From an uncultured Mycoplasmatota bacterium (GTDB taxonomy: Bacteria; Bacillota_I; Bacilli_A; RF39; UBA660): a stretch of DNA of 64,000 bases. The DNA is taken from assembly GCA_946407055.1 (NCBI GenBank), contig CAMJMP010000001.1, forward strand, positions 6,847 through 70,846. Direction: 5' to 3'. A program made the translations under genes and the position numbers. Of the stretch, positions 3,248 through 64,000 are shown in pieces; the first letter of the stretch is position 1; every line of letters begins with the position of its first letter. The notes below the pieces were generated by a model, which was given only the letters and a program-made list of their open reading frames with translations, was not told the DNA's origin and searched no databases.

Positions 3248-3724
3248 ATGGCAGAATTAATTGCAGTTGTAGGAGAAAGTGGCTCTGGTAAGACCACTAG
3301 TATTAGAAATCTTAATCCAGAAGAAACTTTTATAATATCAACTACTGGAAAACGTCCTGGAACAAAAGGAGCAAAGAAGAAATATCCTACATTTAAAATC
3401 GATCCTACAACAAAGGAGATTTCAGGTAATTTCTTCACAGCATCTAATGTTGATTATATTGGAAAGATGCTTAAATTAATCGACTCTAAACTTCCACACA
3501 TAAAGACTGTTATTATTGATGATTATCAGTATGTAATGGGCTTTGAAGCTATGGATAGAGCTGGTGATAAAGGATATGATAAGTTTACTCAAATGGCTCA
3601 ACATGCTTATCAAGTTATTAAGGATTCTATGAATCTTCGTGATGATTTGTATGTTGTTATTCTTACTCATAGTGAGAATACAGGTGATAAACTTAATCCT
3701 TATTATAAGATTAAGACTCAAGGT
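3248..3724 (+). CDS. Sak4-like / AAA_24 family recombination ATPase, exon 1 (the ORF runs to a stop at 3728-3730; the proposed 5' splice site is after 3724)
   Basis: N-terminal Walker A 'VGESGSGKTT' and Walker B-like 'VIIDDYQY'. At 160 aa the ORF is about 70 aa short of a full AAA_24 protein and ends just before the intron-like region. Confidence 0.55.
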
Positions 3725-4925
3725 AAATAATATTTTGCCAGTATAACCCCTAATTCGGCGAAATCTGAAGCACAAATCGTGAGATTAATTGTATGACAAT
3801 GCCGAGCCAAGCAAAAATAGAATTCTAGACTATTTTGGGCGCGTGTATCGACTAGTAGCGGATCGGCTACGTAGAAATTGAAGTAATTAATCAATTTTGA
3901 AATGGGGATGTAAATTTTATATATTTTAATTTGAGGTGTAAATTTTTTATATTATATTTGTTGTAATAAAATTATAATAATTATGAATATAAAAATTTAT
4001 ACTTTAAGTTCTACAAGAAATCCTGATAATATCAGGTATGTAGGTAAATCTAAACAAAAATTAACTAGAAGACTTTCGCAACATTTATTAGATGCTAAAC
4101 GTCATAAAATGAATAAAGATTTTAAAAACCATAATTATAATTGGATAAATAAAGAATTAGAAGATGGTTTTAAAATAATTATTCTTGAATTAGATTCAAT
4201 GGAATTTTCAGAAAATGAAGATTGGAAATGGTTAGAACAATATTGGATTTCTCAATTAAGAATTTGGGGATTTAATTTAACTAATCTTACAGATGGTGGT
4301 GATGGAAATCAAAACCAAAAATTTTCTAAAGAATCTATTGAAAAAAGAGCTTCTAAATTAAGAGGTAAACATCGTGATGAAATAACAAAAGAAAAAATTT
4401 CTAAAGGACTTCAAGGAATAAAACGTTCTGAAGAAACAAAACAGAAATTAAAAAATTCAATACGAAGTTTACAAGGAAAAAAGATTAAACAATTTGATAA
4501 AAAAGGTAATTTTATAAAAATTTGGGATTGTGCAGTAGATGCAGCTAATGAATTAAATATAGATAGAGCTAATATTAGTCATTGTTGTAATCATAAACCA
4601 AATCATAAAACAGCAGGTGGATTTATTTGGAGATTTGAAAATGATAACTTTGAAATAAATACATATACTGATAATAGTATAGTTCAATTAGATTTAAATA
4701 ATAATTTAATTGAAATTTTTAAAACTGCTGTTTTGGCAAGTACTAAAACAGGAATTAGTACTTGTAGTATATCAAATTGTTGTAATCATAAAATAAATGA
4801 TGTAAAAGGGTTTAAATTTATTAAATATAAAGAATTTATGAATACATAGTCAGTTCCCGTAGAAATACGGTAGGCATAAATTTGATAGTAATTATATCAA
4901 ATAAAAAATTTATGTAATTTTAACG
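3725..4925 (+). mobile_element. Group I intron (about 1.2 kb) carrying a GIY-YIG homing endonuclease ORF; boundaries inferred
   Basis: Structured GC-richer core elements 'AATTCGGCGAAATCTG', 'GCCGAGCCAAGC' and 'TAGACTA...GGGCGCG'. The exon ends in U at 3724, the intron ends in G at 4925, and splicing restores the frame: ...KIKTQG|KMIDNVITLEG. Confidence 0.55.
3983..4849 (+). CDS. GIY-YIG homing endonuclease (intron-encoded)
   Basis: 'KIYTL...RYVGKS...R...E...N' GIY-YIG core, NUMOD3-like K/R-rich repeats, and two 'SxCCNHK...GF.W' C-terminal DNA-binding modules. Confidence 0.85.
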   Translation: MNIKIYTLSSTRNPDNIRYVGKSKQKLTRRLSQHLLDAKRHKMNKDFKNHNYNWINKELEDGFKIIILELDSMEFSENEDWKWLEQYWISQLRIWGFNLTNLTDGGDGNQNQKFSKESIEKRASKLRGKHRDEITKEKISKGLQGIKRSEETKQKLKNSIRSLQGKKIKQFDKKGNFIKIWDCAVDAANELNIDRANISHCCNHKPNHKTAGGFIWRFENDNFEINTYTDNSIVQLDLNNNLIEIFKTAVLASTKTGISTCSISNCCNHKINDVKGFKFIKYKEFMNT

Positions 4926-5147
4926 AAAATGATTGATAACGTTATTACTCTTGAAGGTCTGTTTACATATGTTTTCTTTACTGAAGTAACACGTGATGAC
5001 GACGGTAATCCTAAATATATGTTTAAGACTAACTCAGATGGAACTTGTACAGCTAAGTCCCCAATGGGAATGTTTGAAGATCTACTTATTGATAATGATT
5101 TACAGAAAGTAATTTCAAGAATAGAGGAGTATGACAATGAAGATTAA
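4926..5147 (+). CDS. Sak4-like / AAA_24 ATPase, exon 2
   Basis: The frame opens at 4905 and no sensible independent start is needed. The translation 'ITLEGLFTYVFFTEV...' supplies the missing C-terminal part of exon 1. Confidence 0.5.
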   Translation, partial: KMIDNVITLEGLFTYVFFTEVTRDDDGNPKYMFKTNSDGTCTAKSPMGMFEDLLIDNDLQKVISRIEEYDNED

Positions 5148-11355: not shown

Positions 11356-11949
11356 ATGCGTCAAATAAACACAATTACTAAAAATGTTACATTTATTCCC
11401 GTAAAAGGAACTGACTTTTATAATGATTTCTTTGATAAAGAAGGAAATGTAGAGGTTGAAAGTGTAATAGAATCAATCTATTGTAACTCCATCTTACGTT
11501 CTACAAGCGGAAAAACCGATGTTATTAAAAAGAGATTTTTAAAAGGAGTTACAGATGGATTAATTAGGTTTAAATTTGATGATGATAGCAAGTTTAAATT
11601 TTTCGGAATACAGGAATGTAAAAGGTCAATTAAACGAAATTCGGCAGCATATAAGTATCAAATAAATCAGGCTTTACTTTATTTTGTACAAATGATGCAA
11701 GAAAATTGTAAAGTTTTGATTATCAATTCTGTGAATTATTTCGATTATATTTTAATTGATGAAAACATAGACATCATTAATAAATTTAAACAAGATTTAA
11801 AAGATTTATTAAAATTAGAATCTCCAAGTAAAGCGTGTAAAAAGTGTAACTTTATAAATTTACATGATTTAAACATTCATACTTGTGATGTACCTAATAA
11901 AGTTGAGATAGATAAAATAATGTTAAATATTTATAGAAACTGCATATGA
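11356..11949 (+). CDS. Hypothetical protein (possible nuclease: 'ECK...QALLY')
   Basis: 197-aa ORF with weak ExK and QxxxY-like motifs. Confidence 0.3.
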   Translation: MRQINTITKNVTFIPVKGTDFYNDFFDKEGNVEVESVIESIYCNSILRSTSGKTDVIKKRFLKGVTDGLIRFKFDDDSKFKFFGIQECKRSIKRNSAAYKYQINQALLYFVQMMQENCKVLIINSVNYFDYILIDENIDIINKFKQDLKDLLKLESPSKACKKCNFINLHDLNIHTCDVPNKVEIDKIMLNIYRNCI

Positions 11950-12338
11950 ACACACTTGAAAAAATTTATAATAAAGCAATGAAGCAATTTGGTATTTTAT
12001 CTCTTAAAGAAACACAAAGTATTGTAAAGAAGAAGTTTGGAAATGTTGCTAATGAAATTCCAGATGAACAACTTTATAAAGTATCTACCAAGTTTACTTG
12101 GATTACAGACTTAAGTTTCATTGATAATATTACTAACCTTATCCGTCACAATATTTATGAATATGTTGGACTTAAGTATGGTATTATAAATAAGAACTAC
12201 AAACTTGATTTTGTCGATGAAAGTGGTGCTTATTTAATTTCACCAGAAGATTATATAAAGGCAACATCAAAGACTATCTCATTTGGTGGAGAAGATTATA
12301 CATTTAATTACTGTGTACCTGAAGGTGAGGTTTTCTAA
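11946..12338 (+). CDS. Hypothetical protein
   Basis: 130-aa ORF overlapping the upstream stop by 4 nt. Confidence 0.35.
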   Translation: MNTLEKIYNKAMKQFGILSLKETQSIVKKKFGNVANEIPDEQLYKVSTKFTWITDLSFIDNITNLIRHNIYEYVGLKYGIINKNYKLDFVDESGAYLISPEDYIKATSKTISFGGEDYTFNYCVPEGEVF

Positions 12339-13127
12339 TTGATTACTATGGAATTAAAACTTGAAGAATTACTAAAGGGTAAAGCAACTCGAATTAAGGA
12401 AAATGACTTTTTTCCAACTGCAGCTTATGTAGAACCATTTATAGAAAGAATGTCTAAATTCACTTCTGATTTTAGAATTGAGGCAAAACTCCCAGATCAA
12501 ATTACTAAGACTTCTAATGGAGATATTAATTATGATGATATTACCTATAATCGTGTTTGGATTCAAGCAGTGATGCCTGAAGAATATGCTTTTGACAATC
12601 ACGATGAAGTTGTTGGTATGGTATATGGTTTAGATTGTCGCAAACCAATTGTAAAGTTATACAGAGGTGGTCTTAATAGAGCTTGTACTAATCTTTGTGT
12701 ATTCGATCCTTCTTTTCTACATATTCAAGAAATTGAAGCAGAAAAGCCATTTAATTATAAACCTATTCGTCAAATGATGGAGCAAACTTGTGACCTTAAA
12801 GCATGGCTTAATAAACTTCACACTACTTCATTTGCTACTGATTATGTTTCAATAAATGAATCACTTGGCGAGTGGATTCGTAATTCTATTGCTCTATCTT
12901 ACGATAACGGATTTGGAAAAGTTAAATTAAGTGCGACAAATATAATTGATACATATAAAGATCTTTTTGAGAAAAAAGATTCGCCTTATTATGTCGGTGA
13001 AGGAAACGATACTACAATGTTTAATGTATATAATGCATTTACCCAACAAATCACTGACGATAAACGAGATATTATGAATAAAGTAGAGAAAACTTTACTT
13101 ATTAAAGATATTCTTGGTTCCTTCTAA
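12339..13127 (+). CDS. Hypothetical protein
   Basis: 262-aa ORF. Confidence 0.4.
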   Translation: MITMELKLEELLKGKATRIKENDFFPTAAYVEPFIERMSKFTSDFRIEAKLPDQITKTSNGDINYDDITYNRVWIQAVMPEEYAFDNHDEVVGMVYGLDCRKPIVKLYRGGLNRACTNLCVFDPSFLHIQEIEAEKPFNYKPIRQMMEQTCDLKAWLNKLHTTSFATDYVSINESLGEWIRNSIALSYDNGFGKVKLSATNIIDTYKDLFEKKDSPYYVGEGNDTTMFNVYNAFTQQITDDKRDIMNKVEKTLLIKDILGSF

Positions 13128-23582: not shown

Positions 23583-23774
23583 ATGTTATACGAAGTAAGT
23601 GTAGAAACAAGAGGTGAATGGGTAGAGAAAACTAGCTATTTAGTAGAAGCTGAAAGTGAAGAAGAAGCTTTGGATAAATACTATAACGGAGATGTAGATG
23701 AAACAGATAGCCACCGTGACGAGTGGGAAAATTGGACATCTGAACCTGACGTTGTAGCGTGTGAAAACGAATAA
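23583..23774 (+). CDS. Hypothetical small acidic protein
   Basis: 63-aa ORF. Confidence 0.35.
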   Translation: MLYEVSVETRGEWVEKTSYLVEAESEEEALDKYYNGDVDETDSHRDEWENWTSEPDVVACENE

Positions 23775-24697
23775 TGAAACCATTTAAAATAACTCAGTCT
23801 ATTACTAATAAAGATGATATATCTATTAAAAATTATTTTAGAGATATATCTAAAATACCTTTATTAACGAAAGAAGAAGAGTTAGAATTAGGTTATATAA
23901 TTCAAAATAACCTTAAGAAATTAAATAATTCAGAAGAATTATCTTTACAAGAAAAACGATTAACTGAAATAGAAATTAATAAAGCAGTTAATAAACTTGT
24001 AAGTGCTAATTTAAAATTTGTTATTTCTGTAGCAAAACAGTATTGTAATCAAGGTTTACCTTTCATTGATTTAGTAAATGAAGGTAATCTTGGTATGATA
24101 CAAGCAGCTAAAAAGTTCGATCCTAATAAAGGATATAAATTTATAAGTTATGCAGTATGGTGGATTAGACAATTCATAATGCAAGCGATAGCTTTAAAAA
24201 GTAGAACTATTAAAACACCTGTAAATCAATCTGCTTCTTTATCTAAACTTAATAACGCAGTTAATAAGTTCGAACAATTAAATGGAATTAAACCTTCTTA
24301 TGAAGAATTATCTAAATTAACAGGAATATCGGTTGAAAAAATAAACAAGATTTATAGTTATAATTCAAGCTGTATTTCTGTTGATACTCCATTTACTACA
24401 GAAGAAGACTCTGGTTGTTTACTTGATGTTGTTAGAAATCCAAATTGTGAAGATTCTGATAAAAATCTAATGGATTCTTCTTTAAAACAAGATATAAATA
24501 GAGTTTTAGATAAGTTATCTCCTCGCGAAAAAGTAATATTACAAATGTTTTTCGGAATAGATTGTGATGCAATGCAGTTAGATCAAATAGCTCCTAAGTT
24601 CGGAGTTACATCAGAGAGAATAAGACAGATTAAAGATAAAGCAATAGAACAGATTATTGTAAAATATAAATCTATCTTAAAAACATATATTATATGA
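23774..24697 (+). CDS. Sigma-70 family RNA polymerase sigma factor (RpoD-like, lacks region 1.1)
   Basis: Region 2 'IDLVNEGNLGMIQAAKKFDPNKGYKFISYAVWWIRQ' and region 4.2 'LDQIAPKFGVTSERIRQIKDKA'. Confidence 0.85.
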   Translation: MKPFKITQSITNKDDISIKNYFRDISKIPLLTKEEELELGYIIQNNLKKLNNSEELSLQEKRLTEIEINKAVNKLVSANLKFVISVAKQYCNQGLPFIDLVNEGNLGMIQAAKKFDPNKGYKFISYAVWWIRQFIMQAIALKSRTIKTPVNQSASLSKLNNAVNKFEQLNGIKPSYEELSKLTGISVEKINKIYSYNSSCISVDTPFTTEEDSGCLLDVVRNPNCEDSDKNLMDSSLKQDINRVLDKLSPREKVILQMFFGIDCDAMQLDQIAPKFGVTSERIRQIKDKAIEQIIVKYKSILKTYII

Positions 24698-24933
24698 GTG
24701 ATAATGTAAATCATCCTTCACATTATGCATCTGGTAGTATTGAATGTATTGATGCTATGATTGCTGCATATGGTTTAAAAGCAGTAATGGATTTTTGTAA
24801 ATGTAATGCTTTTAAATATCAATGGAGATTTGAAAATAAAAACGGAGAAGAAGATCTCAAGAAAGCTCAATGGTATCAAAATAAATATATTGAACTTAAA
24901 CATATTGAACTTAAAGAAACTGCGTTGAAATGA
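24694..24933 (+). CDS. Hypothetical small cysteine-containing protein
   Basis: 79-aa ORF. Confidence 0.35.
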   Translation: MSDNVNHPSHYASGSIECIDAMIAAYGLKAVMDFCKCNAFKYQWRFENKNGEEDLKKAQWYQNKYIELKHIELKETALK

Positions 24934-25897
24934 TATTAGAAGTATACGATTTAGAATGTTTAGCTAATGTTTTTACGTATACAGGTTATGCTCCAAAAAC
25001 TAAAGAATGGTTTCAATTTGTAATTTGTAATTGGCGAAATGACTATGATAAATTAATTGAGCATTTAAAAAGAGACAAACTTATTATGGTAGGATTTAAT
25101 AACGAGAGTTATGATTATCCATTATTACATCATGTGATTAAACATTATGACGAATACAAAAAATTAAGTGGAAATATTGTTGCTCAAAAATTATATAATA
25201 AATCTCAAGAAATAATAAATCAACAATTCAGTGCAATTGCTGATAAGAATAAATTTATTCCTCAAATTGATTTGTTTAGAATATGGCATTATAATAATGC
25301 TGCACGTTCTACCTCATTGAAGGATCTTGAGATTTGTATGAGAATGGAAAATGTGGAAGAAATGCCTATACACCATACTCATTGGTGTAAACCAGGTGAC
25401 GAAATATGTATTTTGGATTACAATAAAAACGATGTTTGGGCAACTTATTTATTTTTAAATGTAACTTTAGGTCGAACTGATTATTCAATCTATAAAGGAA
25501 AGAATAAAATTGAACTTAGAGAGAAAATTAATAAAAAATTCAATGTTAATGTTATAAACATGGGTGACGTTCCTATGGGAGAGGAATTAATGCTTACTTT
25601 GTATTCAAGAAAAGTAGGTATTCCAAAGTACGTTATCAAACAACGTGGAGGAACTCACCGTTCTACAATAAACTTAAAAGATTGTATTCCATATTGGTGT
25701 AAAATTGAATCTCCAGAGTTTAAAAACTTTTTAAATCAAATTCAAAATAAAACAATTAGAGGAGTTAAAGGAGAATTTCAATATTCTGTAATATTCCATA
25801 ATTATAAATTTGATTTTGGTCTTGGAGGAAGTCATGGATGTTGTGAACCTAAAGTATGGGAATCCAATAAAGATTGGGTAATTGTAGACTATGATGT
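24930..25897 (+). CDS. Family B DNA polymerase, exon 1 (N-terminal and 3'-5' exonuclease domain; 3' boundary approximate)
   Basis: Exo I 'YDLECL', Exo II 'FNNESYDYPLL' and Exo III 'YNKNDVWATY'. The ORF stops at 25919 with no polymerase domain. Confidence 0.6.
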
Positions 25898-26251
25898 TGG
25901 ATTAAAGTGGTCCAACTAAAATGGAAATAAATTGCGGGGAGTCCCTTAGAGACTTAATCACGGCACTAAATAGTAATATATTAGGTAGCAGTAAAGTTAA
26001 CGCTTTACGGATCGTAAAAGCATTAAGTATTGGGTAATCACATCAAAACGCAGCCAAGCTTCCAATTTTTGGAAGAAGGTTCAACGACTATCCTTTTTAG
26101 GAGTAGGGTACAACTGATAACTGTATCCGAAAAATTTCCAAAATTATTTGGATATAACCTTAATTTTAAAAGGTAAATTCGCAAATAATTTGTGATATAG
26201 TCTGAACTAATAGGGAAAACCTATTGACTTATATACAATCATTTATCTTAG
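25898..26251 (+). mobile_element. ORF-less group I intron in the DNA polymerase gene (boundaries approximate)
   Basis: 'AAATTGCGGGGAGTCCC' (compare Tetrahymena 'AAAUUGCGGGAAAGGGGUC'), 'ACGCAGCCAAGC', 'GTTCAACGACTATCC', and 'GATATAGTCTGAAC' followed by a P9-like hairpin. No ORF is present. Confidence 0.6.
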
Positions 26252-27224
26252 TATATATAACACAATTACACTATATCCTAGTATAAGTAAATCTCTTAAA
26301 TTATATCCTGAACATCTTGGTCCTGTATTCAATGAACAATATATAGGGTTTATTGATACTAGATTAAATGAAAAACATAAAGCAAAAGAATTAAGGGATA
26401 ATGTTCTTATTGAAGGATATAAACTTATTCTTAATGGAACATACGGTAAAAGTAAGGAAGAAACTTCTTTCTTATACGATCCATTGTATACATTTAAAAC
26501 AACAGTAGCAGGTCAATTATTTATTTGTATGTGGGCTGAACGTTGGGTTAAAGTTTGTCCACGATTAAAGTTCATACAAACAAATACTGATGGTCAAACT
26601 ATTTATATTCCTCGTGAAGATATAGATAAGATACGTGCTGTAAACGAACAACTTACAGCAGAAACAGGTCTTACTATTGAAGAAGTTGTCTATAAAAAGA
26701 TGATAGTGCGTGATGTGAATAATTACATCGGCGTTTATGAGGATAATGAAAAAGACCACGAACACATTAAGCTAAAAGGTGATTATGAAGTTGATAAAGA
26801 ATTCCATAAAGACCCTTCTATGCGTATTGTGCCTTTTGCTGTTAAAAACTATTTTGTATATGGAATTCCTGTAGAAGAAACCATTAAAAATCATAAAAAT
26901 ATATTTGATTTCTGTCTAAGATTAAAAACTAATGCAAAAAGTACTCCTTATTTTAGACATCTTAACGAAAATTCTGAAATCGTAAATGATAAACTTGATA
27001 GAACAACTCGTTATTATGTTTCTAATAGAGGTGGAAACTTGTATAAAGATTTTGGAGATAGACAAACTGGTGTAAACGTAGGATTTTCAGTTACAATTTT
27101 TAATCAATATGTTGAAAAACCTTTCGAGGAATACGACATTGATTATAGATTTTATATTGTTGAAGCTAAAAAATTAATAACTTCAATAGAAACAAAACAA
27201 TTAACTTTATTCGATTTATTTTAA
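26252..27224 (+). CDS. Family B DNA polymerase, exon 2 (palm and thumb; 5' boundary approximate)
   Basis: The frame is open from 26214 with no start codon until a TTG at 26484. It encodes motif A-like 'TLYPSI', motif B 'KLILNGTYGK' and motif C-like 'TNTDGQ'. Confidence 0.55.
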
Positions 27225-46718: not shown

Positions 46719-48092
46719 ATGGATCCAATAGTAATACAAGGAAAATATACTAAAGCAGAAATATACGCAAAAACTATAGAAGATGGTGTATATTCTCAAA
46801 TATATGATATAATCAATTGTCCAGCTTTCAAAGATAAAAAAGTAGTCCTTATGCCAGATGTTCATGTTGGAGCATCTGGTCCTTGTGGACTATGTGCTGA
46901 AATTGGTGACTGGATTTGTCCAGAACACGTTGGTGTTGATATAGGTTGTACTGTATCAATGATGGTTCTTAATAAAAAGATACCTGTTGAAAAATATGCT
47001 GAAATAGAGCATAAAATTAAAAAAGAAATCCCAATGGGTACTAATATTAGAGATATTTCTATTTTTAAAGCAAATAGAATACTTTCTAATTATTTACAAG
47101 AAAAGGATTTCTATAAATTTTTATCAACAAATTTCAATATATATCGTCAGTATTGGCCTGAAATGCTTAATGATTTGCCAACAACTGTAACAGAAGAGTG
47201 GATTTCATCACAACTTAAACGTCTTGGTATGGATGAAGGTGTGTTTTATAAATCTCTCGGAACTATAGGCGGTGGTAATCATTTCATTGAATATGATGAA
47301 TCTGACGATACTGAATATTCTTCTGCTATAACTCTTCATTTTGGTTCAAGAAACTTTGGAGTTAAGATTTGTAAGTATTGGACTGCAAAAGCAGGAAAAG
47401 GTGTTGATAAATCAAAACTAAAAGAAATTACTAAAAACTTCAAAGAAGAGTATAAGAAAACACATTCTGATATGAAGGACTTTCAATCAGCTTTATCAGA
47501 GGTTATAGAACAAGAAAAAGCTAAACTTATTCCTGGTTATTTAACAGGAGAAAATATGAAAGGCTATCTAATAGATATGTGTTTCGGACAACTTTATGCT
47601 TTATATAATCATAGAGTTGTACAAAATATCATAAGTGGAATTTTATATAAATATGATATTAAAGTAAAGGAAATTGTACATACATCGCATAATTTTATTG
47701 ATTTGGAAGATCATATTCTTAGAAAGTCTGCAATTAGTGCAAAATTCAGAGAACCTATGATTGTTCCATTTAATATGAGAGATGGTGTTGCAATATGTAT
47801 TGGAGTTGGAAACGATAATTGGTTAAATTCTTGTGCTCATGGAGCTGGACGTAAAATGTCTCGATCTAAAGCAAAAGAAACATTATCAATGGAAGAGTTT
47901 AAGAATACTATGTCAAACATATATTCTACTTCTGTCAGTGAAAATACCATTGATGAATCTCCTATGGCATATAAAGACTCTGAAGAAATACAAGAAATTA
48001 TACAAGATACTTGTGTAATTAAATGTAGATTATTTCCTAAAATTAGTATTAAATGTGATGAGGCTCCTTTAGAACCTTGGAAAAATAAGTAA
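46719..48092 (+). CDS. rtcB: RtcB-family RNA 3'-phosphate/5'-OH ligase
   Basis: 'LMPDVHVGASGPCG' metal-binding N-terminal motif and 'NSCAHGAGRKMSR' RtcB signature; 457 aa. Confidence 0.75.
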   Translation: MDPIVIQGKYTKAEIYAKTIEDGVYSQIYDIINCPAFKDKKVVLMPDVHVGASGPCGLCAEIGDWICPEHVGVDIGCTVSMMVLNKKIPVEKYAEIEHKIKKEIPMGTNIRDISIFKANRILSNYLQEKDFYKFLSTNFNIYRQYWPEMLNDLPTTVTEEWISSQLKRLGMDEGVFYKSLGTIGGGNHFIEYDESDDTEYSSAITLHFGSRNFGVKICKYWTAKAGKGVDKSKLKEITKNFKEEYKKTHSDMKDFQSALSEVIEQEKAKLIPGYLTGENMKGYLIDMCFGQLYALYNHRVVQNIISGILYKYDIKVKEIVHTSHNFIDLEDHILRKSAISAKFREPMIVPFNMRDGVAICIGVGNDNWLNSCAHGAGRKMSRSKAKETLSMEEFKNTMSNIYSTSVSENTIDESPMAYKDSEEIQEIIQDTCVIKCRLFPKISIKCDEAPLEPWKNK

Positions 48093-50228: not shown

Positions 50229-51255
50229 TATTGAAGGACTTAAAAAACTTATATTAAGTATTTATACTGACAAAGATTTAGTACGCATGGATGGCGATCA
50301 ACAAGACGACTATATCTTTGGAAAGTTTTATAATACAATTCCATTTTATTTTAATTACCATCCGACGAATGATAATTTTGATTATTGTAATCCATTTCCG
50401 CATAAAGAAGATTATGATCCAAAACAATCATTCTTTAAACTTGTAGAAGAATTTAAAGAAGACGGTTATCTTTTCAATTCTGATTTATATACAGAATATG
50501 GAGTTTTATCTCCGTATTCTCAAATAAAACTTACAAGTAAAGTAATTCCAGAAAGAATAAAGAAATGTTTAGTCTTAAAGGAACACAAAATTGAAAATAT
50601 CTCAAAAGCAATTGTAATTGAGAATGGAGAGATTGAAACACGAACTATAAATATTGAAAGAATTACTGATGAAGCTCTTATTAATTATAATGAAGATCTT
50701 CCTGTAGAAAAATTTGATAATTTCATAGAATCTGATAAATCTGGAATTGCTTTGATGCATGGTATTCCTGGTTCTGGTAAATCTTATTTTCTTAGGTATC
50801 TTATAAATAAACATAGAGATAAAAACTTTATTTATTTCGATAAGACCTTACTTGGTGATTCTACATCAGTAAAGTTTAATAGGTTTTTGGACTATAATAA
50901 AAATTCTATTTTAATATTAGAAGATTGTGAACAATTAATTAAGTCAAGAAATTTATCTAATAATTACTTTATTCACACGCTTCTTAATATCTCTGATGGA
51001 TTAGATGGAGACGATTTAAACATCAAATTTATTTTAACTTTTAATACTGATTACAGTAATATTGATACAGCATTAACTCGTAAAGGTAGACTTAGATTAA
51101 GATATGAATTTAAGAAACTTACAATAGATAGAGTTAAAACTTTATTTGAAAAGTTTAATATAAACGATACTCCTAAACCTATGGCTCTTTGTGATATTTA
51201 TAACTATTTCGAAGAAACAGGTGCTGAAGATAATCGTAAGAAGTTAGGATTTTAA
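50221..51255 (+). CDS. AAA-family ATPase
   Basis: Walker A 'GIPGSGKS', Walker B 'ILILED', second region of homology 'DTALTRKGRL'. Confidence 0.65.
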   Translation: MIDIEGLKKLILSIYTDKDLVRMDGDQQDDYIFGKFYNTIPFYFNYHPTNDNFDYCNPFPHKEDYDPKQSFFKLVEEFKEDGYLFNSDLYTEYGVLSPYSQIKLTSKVIPERIKKCLVLKEHKIENISKAIVIENGEIETRTINIERITDEALINYNEDLPVEKFDNFIESDKSGIALMHGIPGSGKSYFLRYLINKHRDKNFIYFDKTLLGDSTSVKFNRFLDYNKNSILILEDCEQLIKSRNLSNNYFIHTLLNISDGLDGDDLNIKFILTFNTDYSNIDTALTRKGRLRLRYEFKKLTIDRVKTLFEKFNINDTPKPMALCDIYNYFEETGAEDNRKKLGF

Positions 51256-57709: not shown

Positions 57710-57834
57710 TTCTTAAAAAGGTCTTAACACGTTCTTAATTCCTCCATTAATGCTTGTTCATATAATGAAGCGTAATAATCTAAATCTGCTACTGTTTTAC
57801 CATCTATTTCCTTAGTAGGCATTTTACTCAAATA

Positions 57835-60800
57835 CTATGGATATTTTGTTAATAAATCATGTTTTATTCCAATTTCTTCAAGAGACTTAACATCCCAATC
57901 AATAGGATTAAATCTAACTTCTCCAACAACATGATCTTCAATACGTATTGTTTCCTTTCTAGTTTCGTTTTCAACAGATAAAAGCCTATCACTAGGAACC
58001 ATGTAATAATTACTTACATCTATATTTCTAATGATTAAATTTACTTTTTTAGCATATCCATTTATAGCACCCATAGATTTTTGTATTCTATACCAAGCTG
58101 TTGCAGGTGGTATGTTTTCACTTGCTGCTAAAGCTTCAATATCTTCTCTATAAAATCTACTATTTAATTTTTCCCAAAGTTCAGTGTGAAGTGTTTCAGG
58201 ATCTTGTGTATAAATGTATCTACCTGTTGCTGCATAAGGATTTTGAACTTTAAGTATATATGGGAAAAGTTCAAGTTGATCAAGTGGAACTTTTTCATCA
58301 AAAGATGACTCAAATTTATGAAAATCTGATAATTTATATTGAGGATTATCATGTAGATTTTCAAAAATTGGCATTAATGATTGTTGTCCTTGCTTACCGT
58401 AATGAGCAATTAATCCATAATAATAGAATAAATCAACTAATGGAATATTTTGTCCATTAAGATTATATGAATATCCTTGAAGTTTATTAAATTCTGATTT
58501 ATAACTATTAAATACACCTCTTTCTTCATCAGAAGAAGGTAACATATTAATAGGAAGTGTGTAGTTAATAATAGGATTGTGAGTAACTGTGTTTGTTAAT
58601 ATTGAAACTGTTAACGCTTTAATAAATCTGTTATCAGAAATATTTTTAGTAGTTCCATTTTCTCCAAGTGAACCTTTTTGTAAATTAGGTATAATTATAT
58701 TTTCCATAATATACTTAAATGAAGCATCACCAGAAGCAGTTCCTAATTTAATTTCACATTCTTCATCTATTAATTTTCCATTAGCTATACTTTTTATACC
58801 TTTTGGTATTTTAATAGATGGAAGATTTCTTAACATCCATTTACGTCTTACATAATCAGAATAATAATTAGCAATTCCTTTGAATAAATCTTGTTTATCT
58901 TTACTTGTATTTCCAACTAAACCTTCTTCTAATAAATATGTTCCTATTTCAACAGTGGTTTTAAACTTATTACTTGTTTCTAAACTTGATTTATATGCTA
59001 CAACTAAAGATTGTAAATAACCAGAAAAATGAGGAACTGTGAATACTGCATCTAAAACATTAACAGATGCTTTTACGTTATCATAGTTTTCAATACATTG
59101 ATTTCTGTATTCTTCATCAGTATAGAATCGAACAAGATCGAAAGCCTCATATCCATTTTCTGCCTTTTTTGGAACATCTTTATTTTCTAATAGACTTAAT
59201 CTAACAGCTATTCTATGATTTGCATCTATTATAGCTTGATTTCTATTTCTAATTACATTTTCTAAATCAATTACTTTTGAAATTATTTCTTCTGGTTTTG
59301 TAGGTAAACCTTTATTAAGACCAAATATTTGTCCTAATATTTTTAATTCCTCAGCACCTTCAGAAAGTGTTTTTAATGAATTATAAGTCCATTCATTTTC
59401 TTTAACTATATTTACTTGTCTTATATACTCTTCTAATTCATCAATAAGTTGATTATATTTTTGTTTATCTTCAACGGCTACTTCTTTTGTAGTATTTCCG
59501 TATTTATATAATCCTTTTAATGATTCGAGTATTTCAATTTTATCATATAGATTTATTGATTTATCCCAAGCAAATTTAGCAAATAAATAATAAGGAGACA
59601 AATTTTGTACTCCATATTTCAATCCTAAAGATTTAGATAAGTATTCAATATAATTTGGAACTACTTTGTTGTTTACAATTTTAGTTTCATCATATTTACT
59701 TAGCGTATCACGAGGACCTGTTTCAAGATAATCGAAAACTTTTGATATAGAGAATATACCTTTTTCTCCTGTGAATACGTTACTCTTTGTAAGATCTGTT
59801 AATAATAAACCAACATCAGAAGTCATGATTTTAGATACTGATTCTATATCCATTCCAATAGAAACACCAAAAACATACATTCCTAATGTCTTAATGCCTG
59901 CGTTTAATTTACTTAACTGTAACTCTTTAGCATTATCAGTAGCAAGTGAAAGTAAAGCAGACAAATCTAGAGCCGCATCAGAATCATCATAAGTTTCAGA
60001 TAATGTATCATATAATTCAGATCCTATCTTAGGATTTATATTAGCGAAATATTTATAAATTCTAGCTCCTTTTTCACCAGGAACATAGATTTTTATTTCT
60101 TTATTTCTTCCTAATGCAATTCTATCCTTTTGTTTTCTAATTGCTTCACGTTCTTCATCGGTTCCTATTACAGGTCTATTAACAACATAATTGAAATATT
60201 CTGTTAATCCGAAGAAAGTTTTCATACCAACGGCACAGATACTAATACCATCTTTACCAACTTGGTTATCTTCGATAGATTCTGCTTTATTAAATACATT
60301 ACCAGGTGTACGTTCATTAATAAGTTTACCAACTTTAAAGTTCTTAGTAATATTTTTAACAGGACCCGTCATAGCATCTACAGAAGATTGTGCTTGAGTA
60401 AGATTTGCAGCTGTATCAATAATCTTATACATCTTATACATAGAATAATTTTTAGCAATAGAAATTAATTTATTATTACTTACATTACTAAGATAATTAT
60501 TATGTTCATTAATTATTGATGTAAATTCTTCTGTAAAATTACACTTCTTCATTCTTAAAGCCTTAGATAATCTTTCATTTAATTTATCATTTAATTGATA
60601 AAGTCCATTTTCATTAACTTCTTTAATAAATTCAGATAATAAAGTTAAATTAGGATTTTGTTTTAAGTAAATATGTGAAGTGTTTTTTCTTGTTCTAAAA
60701 TTAAATAAATCAGAATATTTATTAATTAAATTGCCAAAGTAGTTTAGAGCATCAGAATTAAATTCTGCTTTTTCATCATCTGTTGCGTCTTCTGATATAT

Positions 60801-60858
60801 CTTTAAGTTCTACATTCTTTCCAGTTGGGAAAGGTAGTTTCATAGAATCGTTAATATT
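57835..60858 (-). CDS. Giant intron-split gene, exon 2 (1002-aa ORF plus about 5 upstream codons); function unknown
   Basis: The frame is open 6 codons upstream of the ATG at 60843. It joins exon 1 (62045 and beyond) if the intron is removed. Confidence 0.45.
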   Translation of the reverse strand, partial: NINDSMKLPFPTGKNVELKDISEDATDDEKAEFNSDALNYFGNLINKYSDLFNFRTRKNTSHIYLKQNPNLTLLSEFIKEVNENGLYQLNDKLNERLSKALRMKKCNFTEEFTSIINEHNNYLSNVSNNKLISIAKNYSMYKMYKIIDTAANLTQAQSSVDAMTGPVKNITKNFKVGKLINERTPGNVFNKAESIEDNQVGKDGISICAVGMKTFFGLTEYFNYVVNRPVIGTDEEREAIRKQKDRIALGRNKEIKIYVPGEKGARIYKYFANINPKIGSELYDTLSETYDDSDAALDLSALLSLATDNAKELQLSKLNAGIKTLGMYVFGVSIGMDIESVSKIMTSDVGLLLTDLTKSNVFTGEKGIFSISKVFDYLETGPRDTLSKYDETKIVNNKVVPNYIEYLSKSLGLKYGVQNLSPYYLFAKFAWDKSINLYDKIEILESLKGLYKYGNTTKEVAVEDKQKYNQLIDELEEYIRQVNIVKENEWTYNSLKTLSEGAEELKILGQIFGLNKGLPTKPEEIISKVIDLENVIRNRNQAIIDANHRIAVRLSLLENKDVPKKAENGYEAFDLVRFYTDEEYRNQCIENYDNVKASVNVLDAVFTVPHFSGYLQSLVVAYKSSLETSNKFKTTVEIGTYLLEEGLVGNTSKDKQDLFKGIANYYSDYVRRKWMLRNLPSIKIPKGIKSIANGKLIDEECEIKLGTASGDASFKYIMENIIIPNLQKGSLGENGTTKNISDNRFIKALTVSILTNTVTHNPIINYTLPINMLPSSDEERGVFNSYKSEFNKLQGYSYNLNGQNIPLVDLFYYYGLIAHYGKQGQQSLMPIFENLHDNPQYKLSDFHKFESSFDEKVPLDQLELFPYILKVQNPYAATGRYIYTQDPETLHTELWEKLNSRFYREDIEALAASENIPPATAWYRIQKSMGAINGYAKKVNLIIRNIDVSNYYMVPSDRLLSVENETRKETIRIEDHVVGEVRFNPIDWDVKSLEEIGIKHDLLTKYP

Positions 60859-62044
60859 CTATAAAGAACTTAAATCTGCATAAGGAGACCAAAGTGGAAG
60901 TCTACCGCTCTTATCAATATCATATGCTGCAATAGATACAGCATCAATATCCGTTTACCATATATTTTTCAATATATGACTGACTATATCTTCATATAAT
61001 TAATTTCCAATTATATGTCTCGCGCTTCGAAAGTTATCAGTTTTCTGATAAGCAATAAATTCTTCTTTTGTAAAGTTATCTCTAATTTTATATAATAAAG
61101 ATGGAACTTGTTCTACATATGGTTTAATTATATTTACGAAATTTATGCAATCTTGTTCAGATGATGTTGCTAAAGAATATGTATTTTTTCCTTCTTTAAA
61201 AGGTCTAAAGTTAATATTCCAAATTTCTTTAAAATATGTAATCATCATATTAATTGTTTCTTCATCTACACAAGTAGCAATTTTACAAGTATGTTGTATA
61301 GAACTACGTTGAATAGAAGTATTAACATTAATACATCCATCATCCATATACCATATAGCTAATCCTAACGGATTTAACCAATTTAATAAATTTCTAGTAA
61401 AAGTTTTCTTTGGTTTATAAACACTTCTTCTTAATGCTTTAATTGTAGGATTTGTTTTTATTCTAACATATAAAACTTTGTTTCCTAAATTATATCCACA
61501 TTTAGATATATATTCTTTTAAACCACCATGTTCAAAACCATATTTTTCTAATAATTTAATTTTCCATTCTAAAAATTCTCGTTGAGATTCTGAATGTGAT
61601 AATTTATAATCTGGATGATTTGTGATTGTTCCATCTCCAATTAACATTGAAATTAATAGAGATTTTTGTTCTTTAGTAAGTTTTCTTTTAATTTTTCTTG
61701 CCATTTCATTTAAATTTTAATATTAAACTTAAATGAAAGCTCTCTACTCCCTTTTGGGATAGTCGATGAACTTTCATCCTTATACAAAATAAAAATATAA
61801 AATTTTGCATCAATTTACAAGTCTTATATTTAATTTTTGCATCTAGGATGCTTAGCTGCGGATTGTCCAATTCTTTTCTTTTTTACTATACCTTTATTAG
61901 TTAAATAAAGCCTTTATGTATATTTCTATCATAAATTAGTAGAAAAGACTCTAAGGAGTTTCCCGTCAGTTCACGAGATTTAATGACTACAACGATTTAT
62001 GAATTAATTCAAAGGTTCGTATGTCAATTTCGGACTGAAATTCA
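60859..62044 (-). mobile_element. Group I intron carrying a LAGLIDADG homing endonuclease ORF (boundaries inferred)
   Basis: On the minus strand: 'CCGCAGCTAAGCATCC', 'GTTCATCGACTATCCC' and 'AAGATATAGTCAGTC' (compare Tetrahymena 'AAGAUAUAGUCGGAC'). The exon ends in U (..GACTAT|) and the intron ends in G (..TATAG|). Confidence 0.55.
61000..61704 (-). CDS. LAGLIDADG homing endonuclease
   Basis: Two LAGLIDADG motifs, 'LLISMLIGDGTI' and 'LAIWYMDDGC'. Confidence 0.8.
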   Translation of the reverse strand: MARKIKRKLTKEQKSLLISMLIGDGTITNHPDYKLSHSESQREFLEWKIKLLEKYGFEHGGLKEYISKCGYNLGNKVLYVRIKTNPTIKALRRSVYKPKKTFTRNLLNWLNPLGLAIWYMDDGCINVNTSIQRSSIQHTCKIATCVDEETINMMITYFKEIWNINFRPFKEGKNTYSLATSSEQDCINFVNIIKPYVEQVPSLLYKIRDNFTKEEFIAYQKTDNFRSARHIIGN

Positions 62045-64000
62045 ATAGTCAGAACCTTGTAACCAAATCTGTGCTGTAGATACGAAAGCAGTATTAATAT
62101 TTGGGTTATCAAATGCTACAATCTTCATAGGCATGAATGATTGCATTGATTGAGAAGGTGTACGAGAAGCAACTGTTTCTAATGATTTTAAGAAAGAAGA
62201 ATGCATTTCTCTACCTAAAGTTTTTAAATAGTTAGCAAGAGGATGATCATTATCACTATCAATGTCTATAATATCATCAATTTTACTATTTTGTTCTTTA
62301 ATGATTTGAGTATTTAATTTAGTTAAAGCCTCTTCATCCCAAATATCAGAATCTTCTACAGTACCTTGAGTTAAGAATTGATAAAATCTGTTTGCTGATT
62401 TATTTTTACTTACTTTAAATAATTCAGCAGATGTAAATTCAGGATCAGATGTTTCTGAAATTTTAGCTGTTGTATAATTTAAGTGATTAACATAAAAACC
62501 AGGGTTCTTAGTGTAAATTATTTCATTACCTAAGCTATCAATATAGATTTTATCTTCTTGACTTGATAACGAATGTATTTGATTTCCATCTGAATCAATT
62601 CTGTATAAGTTTCCATTTTCTGAAAATTTATCAATTTTTAATTCAGTTAAACCATTTATTTGTTCTGGATATGTTGCAATATAATAATGATTTAGTTTTC
62701 CTGTAAACTTATTTTTACTACCATTTAATAAAGCAATACTATAATTACTTTCATCAGCAGTAGGTTTAATGTTATTAATCAACTTATAAGTAAAGAAATC
62801 TGGATCATTAGCTATATCAGTTAATTGATCATATTGATCAAGTCCAAACTCATTAATAAATATTTTAGGAAGAATTAATTCGTAAGGTTTTGACTTAATA
62901 CTTGTTTTATTAACTAAGACTTCTTGTCCATCAATTAAGACTGTTTGTTTATCAGTAAAATCGTTTCCGTTTTCTGATAAAACTAAGTTATCTTGTCTAA
63001 CAAGTTTACGTAGATATTTCTCTAATTGTTTATAATCAAATTCTCCATTAGGTAAAAGATGTTCATAGTTATGTTTAAATACAGAATAAAGTTCTTGTTG
63101 TTTAAGGAAATCCTTTTCATCAAGTATTTCTTTTAAATCAAACAATGCTCTAACAGAGTCTAAATCCCATAATGAATAATCATAACTATTTTCTCCAATA
63201 TTACCTTTAAATAATACATCATAGTTTCCTAATTCGTGACCTACTGTAAGGTCTTGAACTATAGAAGTATAACCTCCTTGTAATATACGTCTTTTTATAT
63301 CACTACGTTGTCTTGGAGTTTTAATCTGTACAGATTTTCCATCAATTATATAAGTTTTACCTATTTCTAAATAATTGAAGTTTATATTTTGTACAGGTTG
63401 TCCGTTTTCGTCAAGTGTTGTTTCAAGTACAACAGGTGCATTTTGTTGTATTGCTTGAAGATATTCTTCAGCAGATATTCCGTCTTCGTTATATTCTAAT
63501 TGTTCATACTTTACATCAATGTATCTAATTGAACCATCTGGGTTTGTTCCCTTTGGTATAGTATACATTTGCATAATATTATACGATGGAGTAAGAACTG
63601 ATAAGATTCCTGGAATTTTCATTTTAATACCAGAATTTGTTAAGAATACAGAAACTGTTGATAAGAATTTAGCATATACAGCAGGATTATCTTTTGGAAG
63701 TTTCTCTAAGAAATCCTCAGTTTTTAATTTTTGTCCTGTTTTAACTTTATCAATTAATTCAGATGCGAAAACAGAAAGTAAATCATTTTCACTCATTGAT
63801 TGTCTTGCTAATGCTTTAACAACTGTATTAACAGTAGCTTCAACAATTGCTTTTTGAGTGTCAACATTTTCATCATTAATATACTCTTTAATTGGTTCAA
63901 GTAATTCACTTGTTCCTATATCAGTAAGTGTTCTTAATGCTCTATACATTTCCATAGAATCATCAAGAGAGAATCCTTTATGTGCACAAGCATTCATAAC
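62045..64000 (-). CDS. Giant intron-split gene, exon 1 (more than 651 aa; continues past the window edge)
   Basis: The ORF is open to the window end ('...VMNACAHKG'). Its stop at 62042-62044 lies just inside the predicted intron. Confidence 0.45.

Follow-up and report, generated by a model that had tools for sequence, protein, structure and literature searches.

A putatively mobile group I intron within the catalytic motif of a predicted crAss-like virion RNA polymerase gene

The window, the whole 64,000-nucleotide stretch of DNA that was analysed, carries near its end two large minus-strand open reading frames (ORFs). The first, of 651 aa (62042-63997), extends past the window edge; the second, of 1002 aa (57835-60843), is separated from it by a 1198-nt spacer. 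The original prediction, a single giant minus-strand gene interrupted by a group I intron with a LAGLIDADG endonuclease inside, was borne out: homologs are uninterrupted, the RNA fold covaries, and the endonuclease matches a Pfam family. The sequence facts behind it (both ORFs, the spacer, the endonuclease, and the quoted core strings) are all present in the window. Its size of more than 1650 codons was right in pointing to a giant gene and wrong in scale, as the gene is about twice that, roughly 3264 codons. The full exon 1, read in an identical contig (L034), has 2189 codons, and the predicted spliced product is ~3264 aa. The features are as follows:

62045..64000, minus strand: exon 1 of the predicted RNA polymerase gene (3' part within the window); homologs uninterrupted across the exon end
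62044-60952, minus strand: group I intron, 1093 nt, IA-like, with P7.1 and P7.2
61984..61990, minus strand: internal guide sequence GTAGTCA, pairing with exon-1 TGACTAT as P1
61955..61972, minus strand: P element (GAACTGACGGGAAACTCC); J3/4, P4 5' strand and P5 5' strand
61855..61865, minus strand: Q element (CAATCCGCAGC); P4 3' strand
61757..61771, minus strand: R element (GTTCATCGACTATCC); J6/7 and P7 5' strand
61749-61758, minus strand: P7.1 hairpin CCCAAAAGGG, following the R element
61000..61704, minus strand: LAGLIDADG homing-endonuclease ORF, 234 aa, inside the P7.2 loop
60993-61017, minus strand: P8
60980..60992, minus strand: S element (AAGATATAGTCAG); J8/7 and P7 3' strand
60959-60978, minus strand: P9
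57724..60951, minus strand: exon 2, 1075 codons plus TAA stop (57724-57726)
60859..60861, minus strand: in-frame TAG, exon 2 codon 31, where the close relatives L002 and L011 have CAA (Gln)
57835..57837, minus strand: in-frame TAG, exon 2 codon 1039, earlier taken as the stop of the 1002-aa ORF

Exon 1 ends ...TGG TTA CAA GGT TCT GAC TAT (W L Q G S D Y). The 5' splice site had been placed after the U of ...GACTAT, and the homologs, which run uninterrupted from this exon end, agree. Exon 2 starts at 60951, directly after the terminal G of the intron at 60952, and opens with GAT ATT GAT (D I D), the remainder of the catalytic motif; the junction is ...WLQGSDY|DIDAVS.... Eleven uninterrupted homologous proteins have ...LQGSD[YFL]DIDAVS..., an uninterrupted QGSD[YL]DID is found in ~129 IMG/VR contigs, and an intron-less allele in L040 reads CAAGGTAGCGACTTT|GATATTGATGCTGTATC. 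By these homologs the frame continues as ...QGSDY|DIDAVSIAAYDIDKSGRLPLWSPYADLSSL(TAG)NINDSMK.... The first intron codon, TGA, is an in-frame stop in unspliced RNA, and the intron ends in ...GTAAACG; the terminal G (omega-G) lies directly 5' of exon 2 (...GTAAACG|GAT) and is a G in all copies examined. Third-codon-position divergence begins directly after ...AAACG|, i.e. at 60951, and the segment 60951-60862 holds 30 conserved codons and no start codon. The predicted ligated-exon RNA junction is GGTTCTGACTAT|GATATTGATGCT, and the predicted junction-spanning peptide is IWLQGSDYDIDAVSIAAYDIDK.

The conserved core P3-P9 is present, including the P3/P7 pseudoknot and the elements P, Q, R, and S; the three core strings quoted in the original prediction were located as Q, R, and S. 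P1 (UGACUAU/GUAGUCA) places a U.G wobble at the splice site that is invariant in 10/10 copies, and two of its positions show compensatory changes (e.g. exon GATTAT with guide GTAATC in MT835470). Among 10 distinct intron copies, 99.2% of cells were paired over the 74 pairs of P1, P3-P9, P7.1, and P7.2, with changes on both sides at 35 of them. Controls with slid partners were 35-44% paired with 4-9 double-change pairs, and none of 500 shuffles reached the observed values. P7 is invariant among the copies and thus uninformative by itself. The extra P7.1 (CCC/GGG) and P7.2 (GAGA/UUUC, with compensatory changes) between the P7 5' strand and the P3 3' strand are a feature of subgroup IA. Against Rfam Intron_gpI (RF00028), the window copy scored 27.3 bits (E 1.7e-4), below the 50-bit gathering cut-off, because the model cannot span the 0.7-kb ORF insertion; an ORF-less copy of the same intron in L006 scored 63 bits against this cut-off of 50 (E 2e-14). 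The results support a real ribozyme fold and no chance resemblance.

The endonuclease ORF is intact, with two motifs in one chain (..LIGDGTI.. and ..YMDDGCI..), and the final ~11 codons overlap the 3' strands of P7.2 and P3 and the 5' strand of P8. Residues 16-183 match Pfam LAGLIDADG_2 (PF03161; 78.1 bits, cut-off 25, E 1e-21), and the protein matches PHROG 11023 at E 2e-20. L006 and L014 lack the ORF, and L003 and L004 have it in decayed form, while the ORF-less copies retain the ribozyme; an intron at this fixed site thus occurs with, without, or with a decayed endonuclease gene. About 25 IMG/VR contigs of the family have the intron and about 129 lack it. The window intron is 75% identical to the copy in MT835470, where host proteins are 24-26% identical, and 97% identical to the copy in L002, where exon-2 proteins are only 50% identical; both comparisons and the patchy presence argue that the intron is mobile. 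If so, it moves between phages otherwise diverged almost beyond recognition, and would be a clean case of a homing element aimed at the most conserved DNA of an essential gene.

The host protein had been described as of unknown function and placed like a structural or ejection protein. Its motif, Foldseek, and BLASTP now identify the gene as that of a predicted crAss-like virion-packaged RNA polymerase of the phi14:2 gp66 type; the ejection guess came close, polymerases of this type being packaged in the virion. The intron lies inside the catalytic motif D-Y|D-I-D, between its codons 2 and 3, at the match to DFDID of gp66. The spliced motif would be DYDID, homologs have DFDID, DLDID, or DYDVD, and position 4 is I or V, as in all crAss-like polymerases. 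In pairwise BLASTP the junction segment matched gp66 residues 1314-1369, including DFDID (56 residues, E 5e-5). The best Foldseek match in the PDB was 6vr4_A (E 0.033); the AlphaFold model used is poor, the region around the catalytic motif included. Similarity to gp66 is weak outside the motif (hhalign E 0.005, probability 7%), and searches of PDB sequences gave no matches. Gene order in the window and L034 (a 3088-aa gene, the polymerase, a 352-aa gene, a 1599-aa PDDEXK protein, and plus-strand replication genes) follows the phi14:2 layout, a giant-gene block converging on a replication block, and the primase of the window is closest to crAss-like phages. The window is thus read as part of a crAss-like (Crassvirales) gut phage of ~180 kb, probably of the Zeta group.

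A full-length product of ~3264 aa would need three in-frame TAGs, two in exon 2 and one in exon 1, to be read as an amino acid, with glutamine the likeliest, as in related phages. At least five more lie in the giant gene upstream, which brings the giant genes of this genome to at least eight. Of the TAGs in the window, one is matched by CAA in L002 and the others sit at variable alignment positions. Homology runs on beyond both exon-2 TAGs; after the second, 36 more codons show homology to the P0001 C-terminus. Six assemblies with up to 49 differing positions in exon 2 all keep both TAGs, and synonymous changes among them exceed non-synonymous ones (22:18, 20:11, 28:20). In L003, L014, and L040, TAG stands at invariant glutamines, the Q of WLQGSDY and of PAQCMQSFM. 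Relatives thus read TAG as glutamine, which argues that the 1002-aa ORF is an annotation artefact, and glutamine is also the most likely reading here; the predicted sequence across the TAG at 60861-60859, if decoded, is ...YADLSSLQNINDSMK.... No suppressor tRNA (anticodon CUA) was detected in the 64-kb window or ~28 kb of flanks, together about half of the ~180-kb genome; only a tRNA-Gln(UUG) turned up, ~9.8 kb outside the start of the window. Suppressor tRNAs are found in only about 40% of TAG-recoded genomes in the literature.

The TAG at 60861-60859 could instead be a true stop in a spliced RNA, leaving the polymerase as two chains: a catalytic N-terminal chain of ~2219 aa, extending 30 residues past the motif, and a C-terminal chain from ATG 60843 of 1002 aa (1039 with read-through). 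That ATG lies five codons past the TAG, the plus-strand genes of the window do end in TAG, and polymerase protein boundaries are reported to differ among close relatives; such a split would also fit the missing suppressor tRNA in the available sequence. We nevertheless consider it improbable, as the closest relatives (L002 and L011) have CAA there in one continuous frame, the other in-frame TAGs of the giant genes would be left over, one TAG lies so near the real end of the gene that a split makes no sense, and relatives demonstrably use TAG for glutamine.

Less probable still is an unspliced arrangement of two independent genes that flank a free-standing homing-endonuclease gene. Automatic gene callers do report separate genes here in every assembly, and the window copy of the intron falls under the Rfam cut-off; yet the break falls within the catalytic motif, the conserved codons at the start of exon 2 have no start codon, the fold covaries even in P1 with the exon, many relatives have one uninterrupted ORF across the site, and the ribozyme outlasts its ORF. 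Slightly weaker again is a decaying pseudogene with a dead intron and nonsense mutations, to which the three in-frame TAGs and the 1.1 kb inserted into a catalytic motif might point: the same arrangement and TAGs recur in the six assemblies, which come from different samples, the excess of synonymous changes and the intact helices and endonuclease ORF contradict decay, conservation of the intron is higher still (1-7 differences over its 1093 nt among assemblies), and in crAss-like phages the early genes are transcribed by this polymerase. The 3' splice site first proposed, after ...TATAG at 60859 so that ...GSDY joins NINDSMKLPF directly from 60858, has next to no chance of being correct and is ruled out by homolog alignments: it is preceded by a G and was shifted to avoid the in-frame TAG (which is most likely decoded), but it lies 93 nt downstream of the exon 2 start shown by the homologs and deletes DIDAVSIAAYDIDKSGRLPLWSPYADLSSL, including two of the three catalytic aspartates, which all homologs conserve, and codon-like divergence already starts at 60951, with P9 and the terminal G directly before it in all copies.

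The explanation as a whole, a mobile group I intron in a crAss-like virion RNA polymerase gene that is spliced out while TAGs are decoded, is in our judgement highly probable. The proposed order of events is as follows: in the late transcript the ribozyme would fold, its guide GUAGUCA pairing with the exon-1 end UGACUAU; external guanosine would attack after U62045; and exon 1 would then be ligated to G60951, after the terminal G60952, restoring the motif ...WLQGSDYDIDAVS.... Translation of unspliced RNA would stop at the TGA that forms the first intron codon and give an enzyme without two of the three catalytic aspartates, and thus splicing would be needed for an active polymerase. During co-infection the endonuclease presumably cuts intron-less alleles at the conserved motif-coding DNA, and the intron would then be copied into them (homing). 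Three mis-called genes (651+ aa, 234 aa, and 1002 aa) would become one ~3264-aa polymerase and a mobile element, and the locus could serve as an annotation guide for a very abundant human-gut phage group.

The closest known protein, phi14:2 gp66 (PDB 6VR4, motif 1361-DFDID-1365), is likewise a giant virion-type protein with D[FY]D[IV]D preceded by R-x-P...IV; it shares the genome position of the window gene and is the top structural match. It differs in length (2180 aa against ~3264), its similarity is confined to the motif and one downstream DNAK[ED] segment, and its gene has no intron and uses the standard code. The T-even group IA introns (td, nrdB, sunY) and other phage polymerase introns resemble the window intron as predicted: they are self-splicing, have the extra P7.1/P7.2 and an endonuclease ORF looped out of the core, and interrupt a highly conserved catalytic part of a nucleic-acid enzyme. 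The endonucleases of the T4 introns are of the GIY-YIG or HNH type. By these general features, the window intron differs in its LAGLIDADG enzyme, in an ORF in P7.2 that overlaps P3 and P8, and in its RNA polymerase host.

For the TAG codons, the comparison is with gut phages that read TAG as glutamine (code 15; Borges et al. 2022 and Peters et al. 2022, both cited through PMC10136315). Such phages share with the window the confinement of in-frame TAGs to late virion-type genes, with early genes keeping TAG as a stop. The window phage differs in that no suppressor tRNA was located in the sequence read, and its TAG density is very low (3 in ~3264 codons, against 21 in ~1000 codons in L003).

An intron in a polymerase motif is not new in principle: Yutin et al. 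(2021; PMC7886860) had described such introns, and breaks of the DxDxD motif, in crAss-like phages, and the legend of their Fig. 3 places a LAGLIDADG intron-encoded protein within the transcription gene block. Phage group, gene block, endonuclease family, TAG/TGA recoding, and the DxDxD break of the polymerase are common to their account and ours. There, introns were found via protein domains, and the Zeta-group DxDxD breaks were left partly unexplained, with "unknown expression mechanisms". It is a rather improbable extension that these breaks represent this one intron family, often ORF-less and hidden from protein-domain searches, with splicing and amber suppression forming a two-step gate in the window phage. 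The gate would restrict active virion polymerase to late infection, and an unsuppressed TAG would give an alternative split form of 2219 aa plus about 1000 aa. Relative to the introns as that paper presents them, the present locus adds the exact junction, a covarying fold, ORF-less and ORF-decayed copies, and evidence of horizontal spread, and offers a concrete explanation for part of the published motif disruption, namely that a group I intron always sits at one site, separating codons 2 and 3 of D-x-D-x-D.

A giant minus-strand gene at the window's right end is interrupted by a group I intron. The original prediction of such an intron was confirmed by its core elements, a covarying fold and uninterrupted homologs. 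The reading frames on this strand are as follows:

62042-63997, minus strand: ORF of 651 aa, continuing beyond the window edge
61000-61704, minus strand: ORF of 234 aa, LAGLIDADG endonuclease with two motifs
57835-60843, minus strand: ORF of 1002 aa
56651-57709, minus strand: ORF of 352 aa, adjoining the polymerase gene, with a HEMMH zinc-protease motif
minus strand: PD-(D/E)XK protein of 1599 aa

The LAGLIDADG endonuclease predicted within the spacer was also recovered; the 234-aa ORF matched Pfam PF03161 at 78 bits, as well as PHROG 11023.

The splice junction was mapped by aligning the window with two relatives, the Logan contig L002 and the fecal phage contig MT835470. Divergence at every third position began after ...GGTAAACG, at window position 60951, and coding sequence therefore begins there. 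The 3' splice site proposed originally, 93 nt downstream of this start, was rejected on the basis of the same alignment. The joined translation reads ...WLQGSDY, followed across the junction by DIDAVSIAAYDIDKSG... Eleven database proteins were continuous across the junction; the original prediction's 5' splice site was upheld. The DNA of L040, an intron-less relative, was likewise continuous, with ...GGTAGCGACTTT followed directly by GATATTGATGCT... Intron-less alleles were not matched by an exact degenerate DNA pattern; a protein-pattern scan located them, with uninterrupted QGSD[YL]DID in approximately 129 IMG/VR contigs. The alternative of two independent genes was rejected because relatives read straight through the junction. 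Shifting either splice site by a single base destroyed the match, and the junction is therefore unique; with exon 2 starting at 60951, the intron thus spans 62044-60952 (1093 nt), with an in-frame TGA at its 5' end and a G at its 3' end. The predicted ligated-exon DNA joins CAAGGTTCTGACTAT to GATATTGATGCTGTATC, and the predicted junction-spanning peptide is IWLQGSDYDIDAVSIAAYDIDK. The window was 100% identical to ENA contig L034 across 12.3 kb, and in that contig exon 1 comprises 2189 codons; the spliced product would therefore be about 3264 aa, which replaces the earlier figure of more than 1650 codons.

The three RNA strings quoted in the original prediction were present and correspond to the classical group I core elements Q, R, and S; a match to AAGATATAGTC at 50308 was dismissed as chance. 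At the gathering threshold, Rfam yielded no matches on the window or on loci L001-L004. The window copy scored 27 bits (E 1.7e-4), under the threshold because the 0.7-kb ORF interrupts the core. The exact 22-nt core string retrieved 27 IMG/VR contigs of 30-185 kb, most of which hold the intron at the same site. Two intron copies among the relatives, in L006 (363 nt) and L014 (378 nt), lack an ORF, and the former reached 63 bits (E 2e-14), above the Rfam cut-off; the copies in L003 and L004 carry a decayed endonuclease ORF. Ten distinct copies were aligned and the fold written out on them; it comprised P1, P3, P4, P5, P5a-c, P6, P7, P7.1, P7.2, P8, and P9. Across these copies 99.2% of cells were paired, and both-sided changes were observed in 35 of the 74 pairs. 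None of 500 shuffles reached the observed pairing values, and slid-partner controls paired in just 35-44%. P1 shows covariation with the exon, the pairing being GACTAT/GTAGTC in the window and GATTAT/GTAATC in MT835470. With P7.1 and P7.2 present, the intron falls in subgroup IA. Within the P7.2 loop lies the endonuclease ORF, its 3' end overlapping P3 and P8.

Four IMG/VR contigs (L017, L024, L025, and L030) have an extra ORF in the 5' part of the same intron (...EADGSQHYDINNPNYSEYQKECDKIKDNWCKNHNIKLIRIPY...). This ORF is likely another nuclease, and the introns would then have two ORFs each. In another contig (L010, 173,865 bp), the LAGLIDADG ORF carries TGA at the position of the window's TGG (Trp, ..LLNWL..); this intron ORF thus seems adapted to a host phage in which TGA is recoded to Trp.

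The function of the gene, described originally as unknown, is indicated by the junction itself, which restores the D-Y-D-I-D motif of the crAss-like virion RNA polymerase. A virion-packaged RNA polymerase is common to all crAss-like phages, and its DFDxD motif has Ile or Val in the fourth position; in gp66, the enzyme of Cellulophaga phage phi14:2, the motif reads 1361-DFDID-1365, and none of its aspartates is dispensable. A 98-aa segment across the junction aligned by BLASTP with gp66 residues 1314-1369, motif included (E 5e-5), and hhalign of profile A3 against gp66 gave a weak match at the downstream DNAK[ED] segment. The AlphaFold model of P0022, an intron-less homolog, was rather poor (pLDDT <50 at residues 265-312, exactly around the motif). 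Its best Foldseek match among 350,000 PDB chains, 6vr4_A (gp66; E 0.033), is for that reason suggestive only. Neither exon was matched in PHROGs or Pfam, and three queries against PDB sequences (the junction segment, the spliced homolog at its full 3282 aa, and profile A3) returned no significant match. Overall, the original interpretation was partly supported: the intron and its 5' splice site stood, but the 3' splice site, gene size and function did not.

Exon 2 extends past two in-frame stop codons before it terminates, all on the minus strand:

60861-60859, minus strand: in-frame TAG in exon 2, homology continuing beyond
57837-57835, minus strand: in-frame TAG in exon 2, homology continuing beyond
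57726-57724, minus strand: TAA, the true stop, with the next gene 14 nt further

One more in-frame TAG occurs in exon 1. Decay of the gene to a pseudogene would also leave interrupted frames. Both exon-2 TAGs, however, were kept in six assemblies differing at up to 49 exon-2 positions, and synonymous codon changes among these assemblies exceeded non-synonymous ones; the TAGs are therefore neither sequencing errors nor decay, and the pseudogene reading was rejected. Relatives use TAG heavily (21 in the L003 homolog), including at invariant glutamines, the Q of WLQGSDY and that of PAQCMQSFM. The early, plus-strand genes of the window still terminate in TAG. This pattern of apparent TAG decoding matches the late-gene TAG-to-Gln recoding described for crAss-like phages. 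No suppressor tRNA was found in the window or in 29 loci.

Several further observations concern recoding. Beyond window position 64000, an upstream giant gene of 3088 aa (L034 1-3097) contains at least five in-frame TAGs in its last 1032 codons and is cut by standard-code callers into 2285, 487, and 201 aa in near-identical contigs; its TAG positions lie in regions too variable for an alignment with relatives to be informative. Four long ORFs of the early block end in TAG (4849, 18477, 35068, and 49187, plus strand) with a second, non-TAG stop 5-10 codons on, and such back-up stops would limit damage from amber suppression. The suppressor search yielded only a phage-encoded tRNA-Gln(UUG), at 200-272 of contig L041, some 9.8 kb outside window position 1; immediately past it there may be a cluster of tRNAs, which could include an amber suppressor. 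An IMG/VR scan with the tRNA-Gln sequence gave no matches.

Comparison of intron copies provided evidence of what would be a recent horizontal transfer. The introns of the window and L002 are 97% identical (ribozyme DNA 97.1%, endonuclease protein 97.0%), and their exon-2 proteins 50%; against MT835470, the intron is about 75% identical and the host proteins 24-26%. Among IMG/VR contigs of the family, the intron is present in roughly 25 and absent from about 129. The intron is flanked by DNA that encodes the catalytic motif and shows nucleotide-level conservation; such a flank is the usual kind of target for the homing predicted here.

Other insertions were observed. The DNA polymerase gene of the window holds a further group I intron, lacking an ORF, at approximately 25913-26230 on the plus strand (Rfam Intron_gpI, 21 bits, E 0.006), with P-, Q-, R-, and S-like elements AAATTGCGGGG, AAAACGCAGCC, GGTTCAACGACTATCC, and GTGATATAGTCTG; the phrog_1252 polymerase profile is split between ORFs 24930-25919 (profile positions 56-357) and 26484-27224 (426-654). 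An AAA_24-like gene (3248-5131, plus strand) consists of a 160-aa ORF followed by a 288-aa NUMOD1 ORF (3983-4849), and is a single 232-aa ORF (11721-12419) in relative L043; the locus looks like another mobile insertion with a homing endonuclease. Two IMG/VR contigs (L028 and L016) have the same 22-nt core string in other genes, and thus a related intron. The gene that it splits in L028 is family-B DNA-polymerase-like, with the break between ...FHFDVD and ...SYYPSIM, again at a catalytic aspartate motif.

The window shares the gene order of phi14:2, in which giant genes on the minus strand converge on a replication block on the plus strand. The plus-strand genes of the window encode an SNF2-type helicase, DnaB, DnaG primase, NrdD, ligase, DNA polymerase, Thy1, and an AAA+ ATPase, and the primase is nearest to those of crAss-like phages. 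The block also contains a sigma-factor-like ORF (23774-24697, plus strand; phrog_351, E 3e-65) and an RtcB RNA ligase (46719-48092, plus strand). The phage genome is about 180 kb (120-kb and 59-kb pieces in one sample, 181 kb in another), a size that fits the Zeta group. Yutin et al. [quoted passage not shown] The same authors reported that RNAP ORFs of the Zeta group are broken even within DxDxD, for which they suggested unknown expression mechanisms. A 2023 review restates these findings on introns and broken RNAP ORFs. With both already described, the locus belongs to a known kind. What is new here is the exact junction, the covariation-supported fold, the evidence of recent horizontal transfer, and the ORF-less intron copies, which protein-domain searches would miss.
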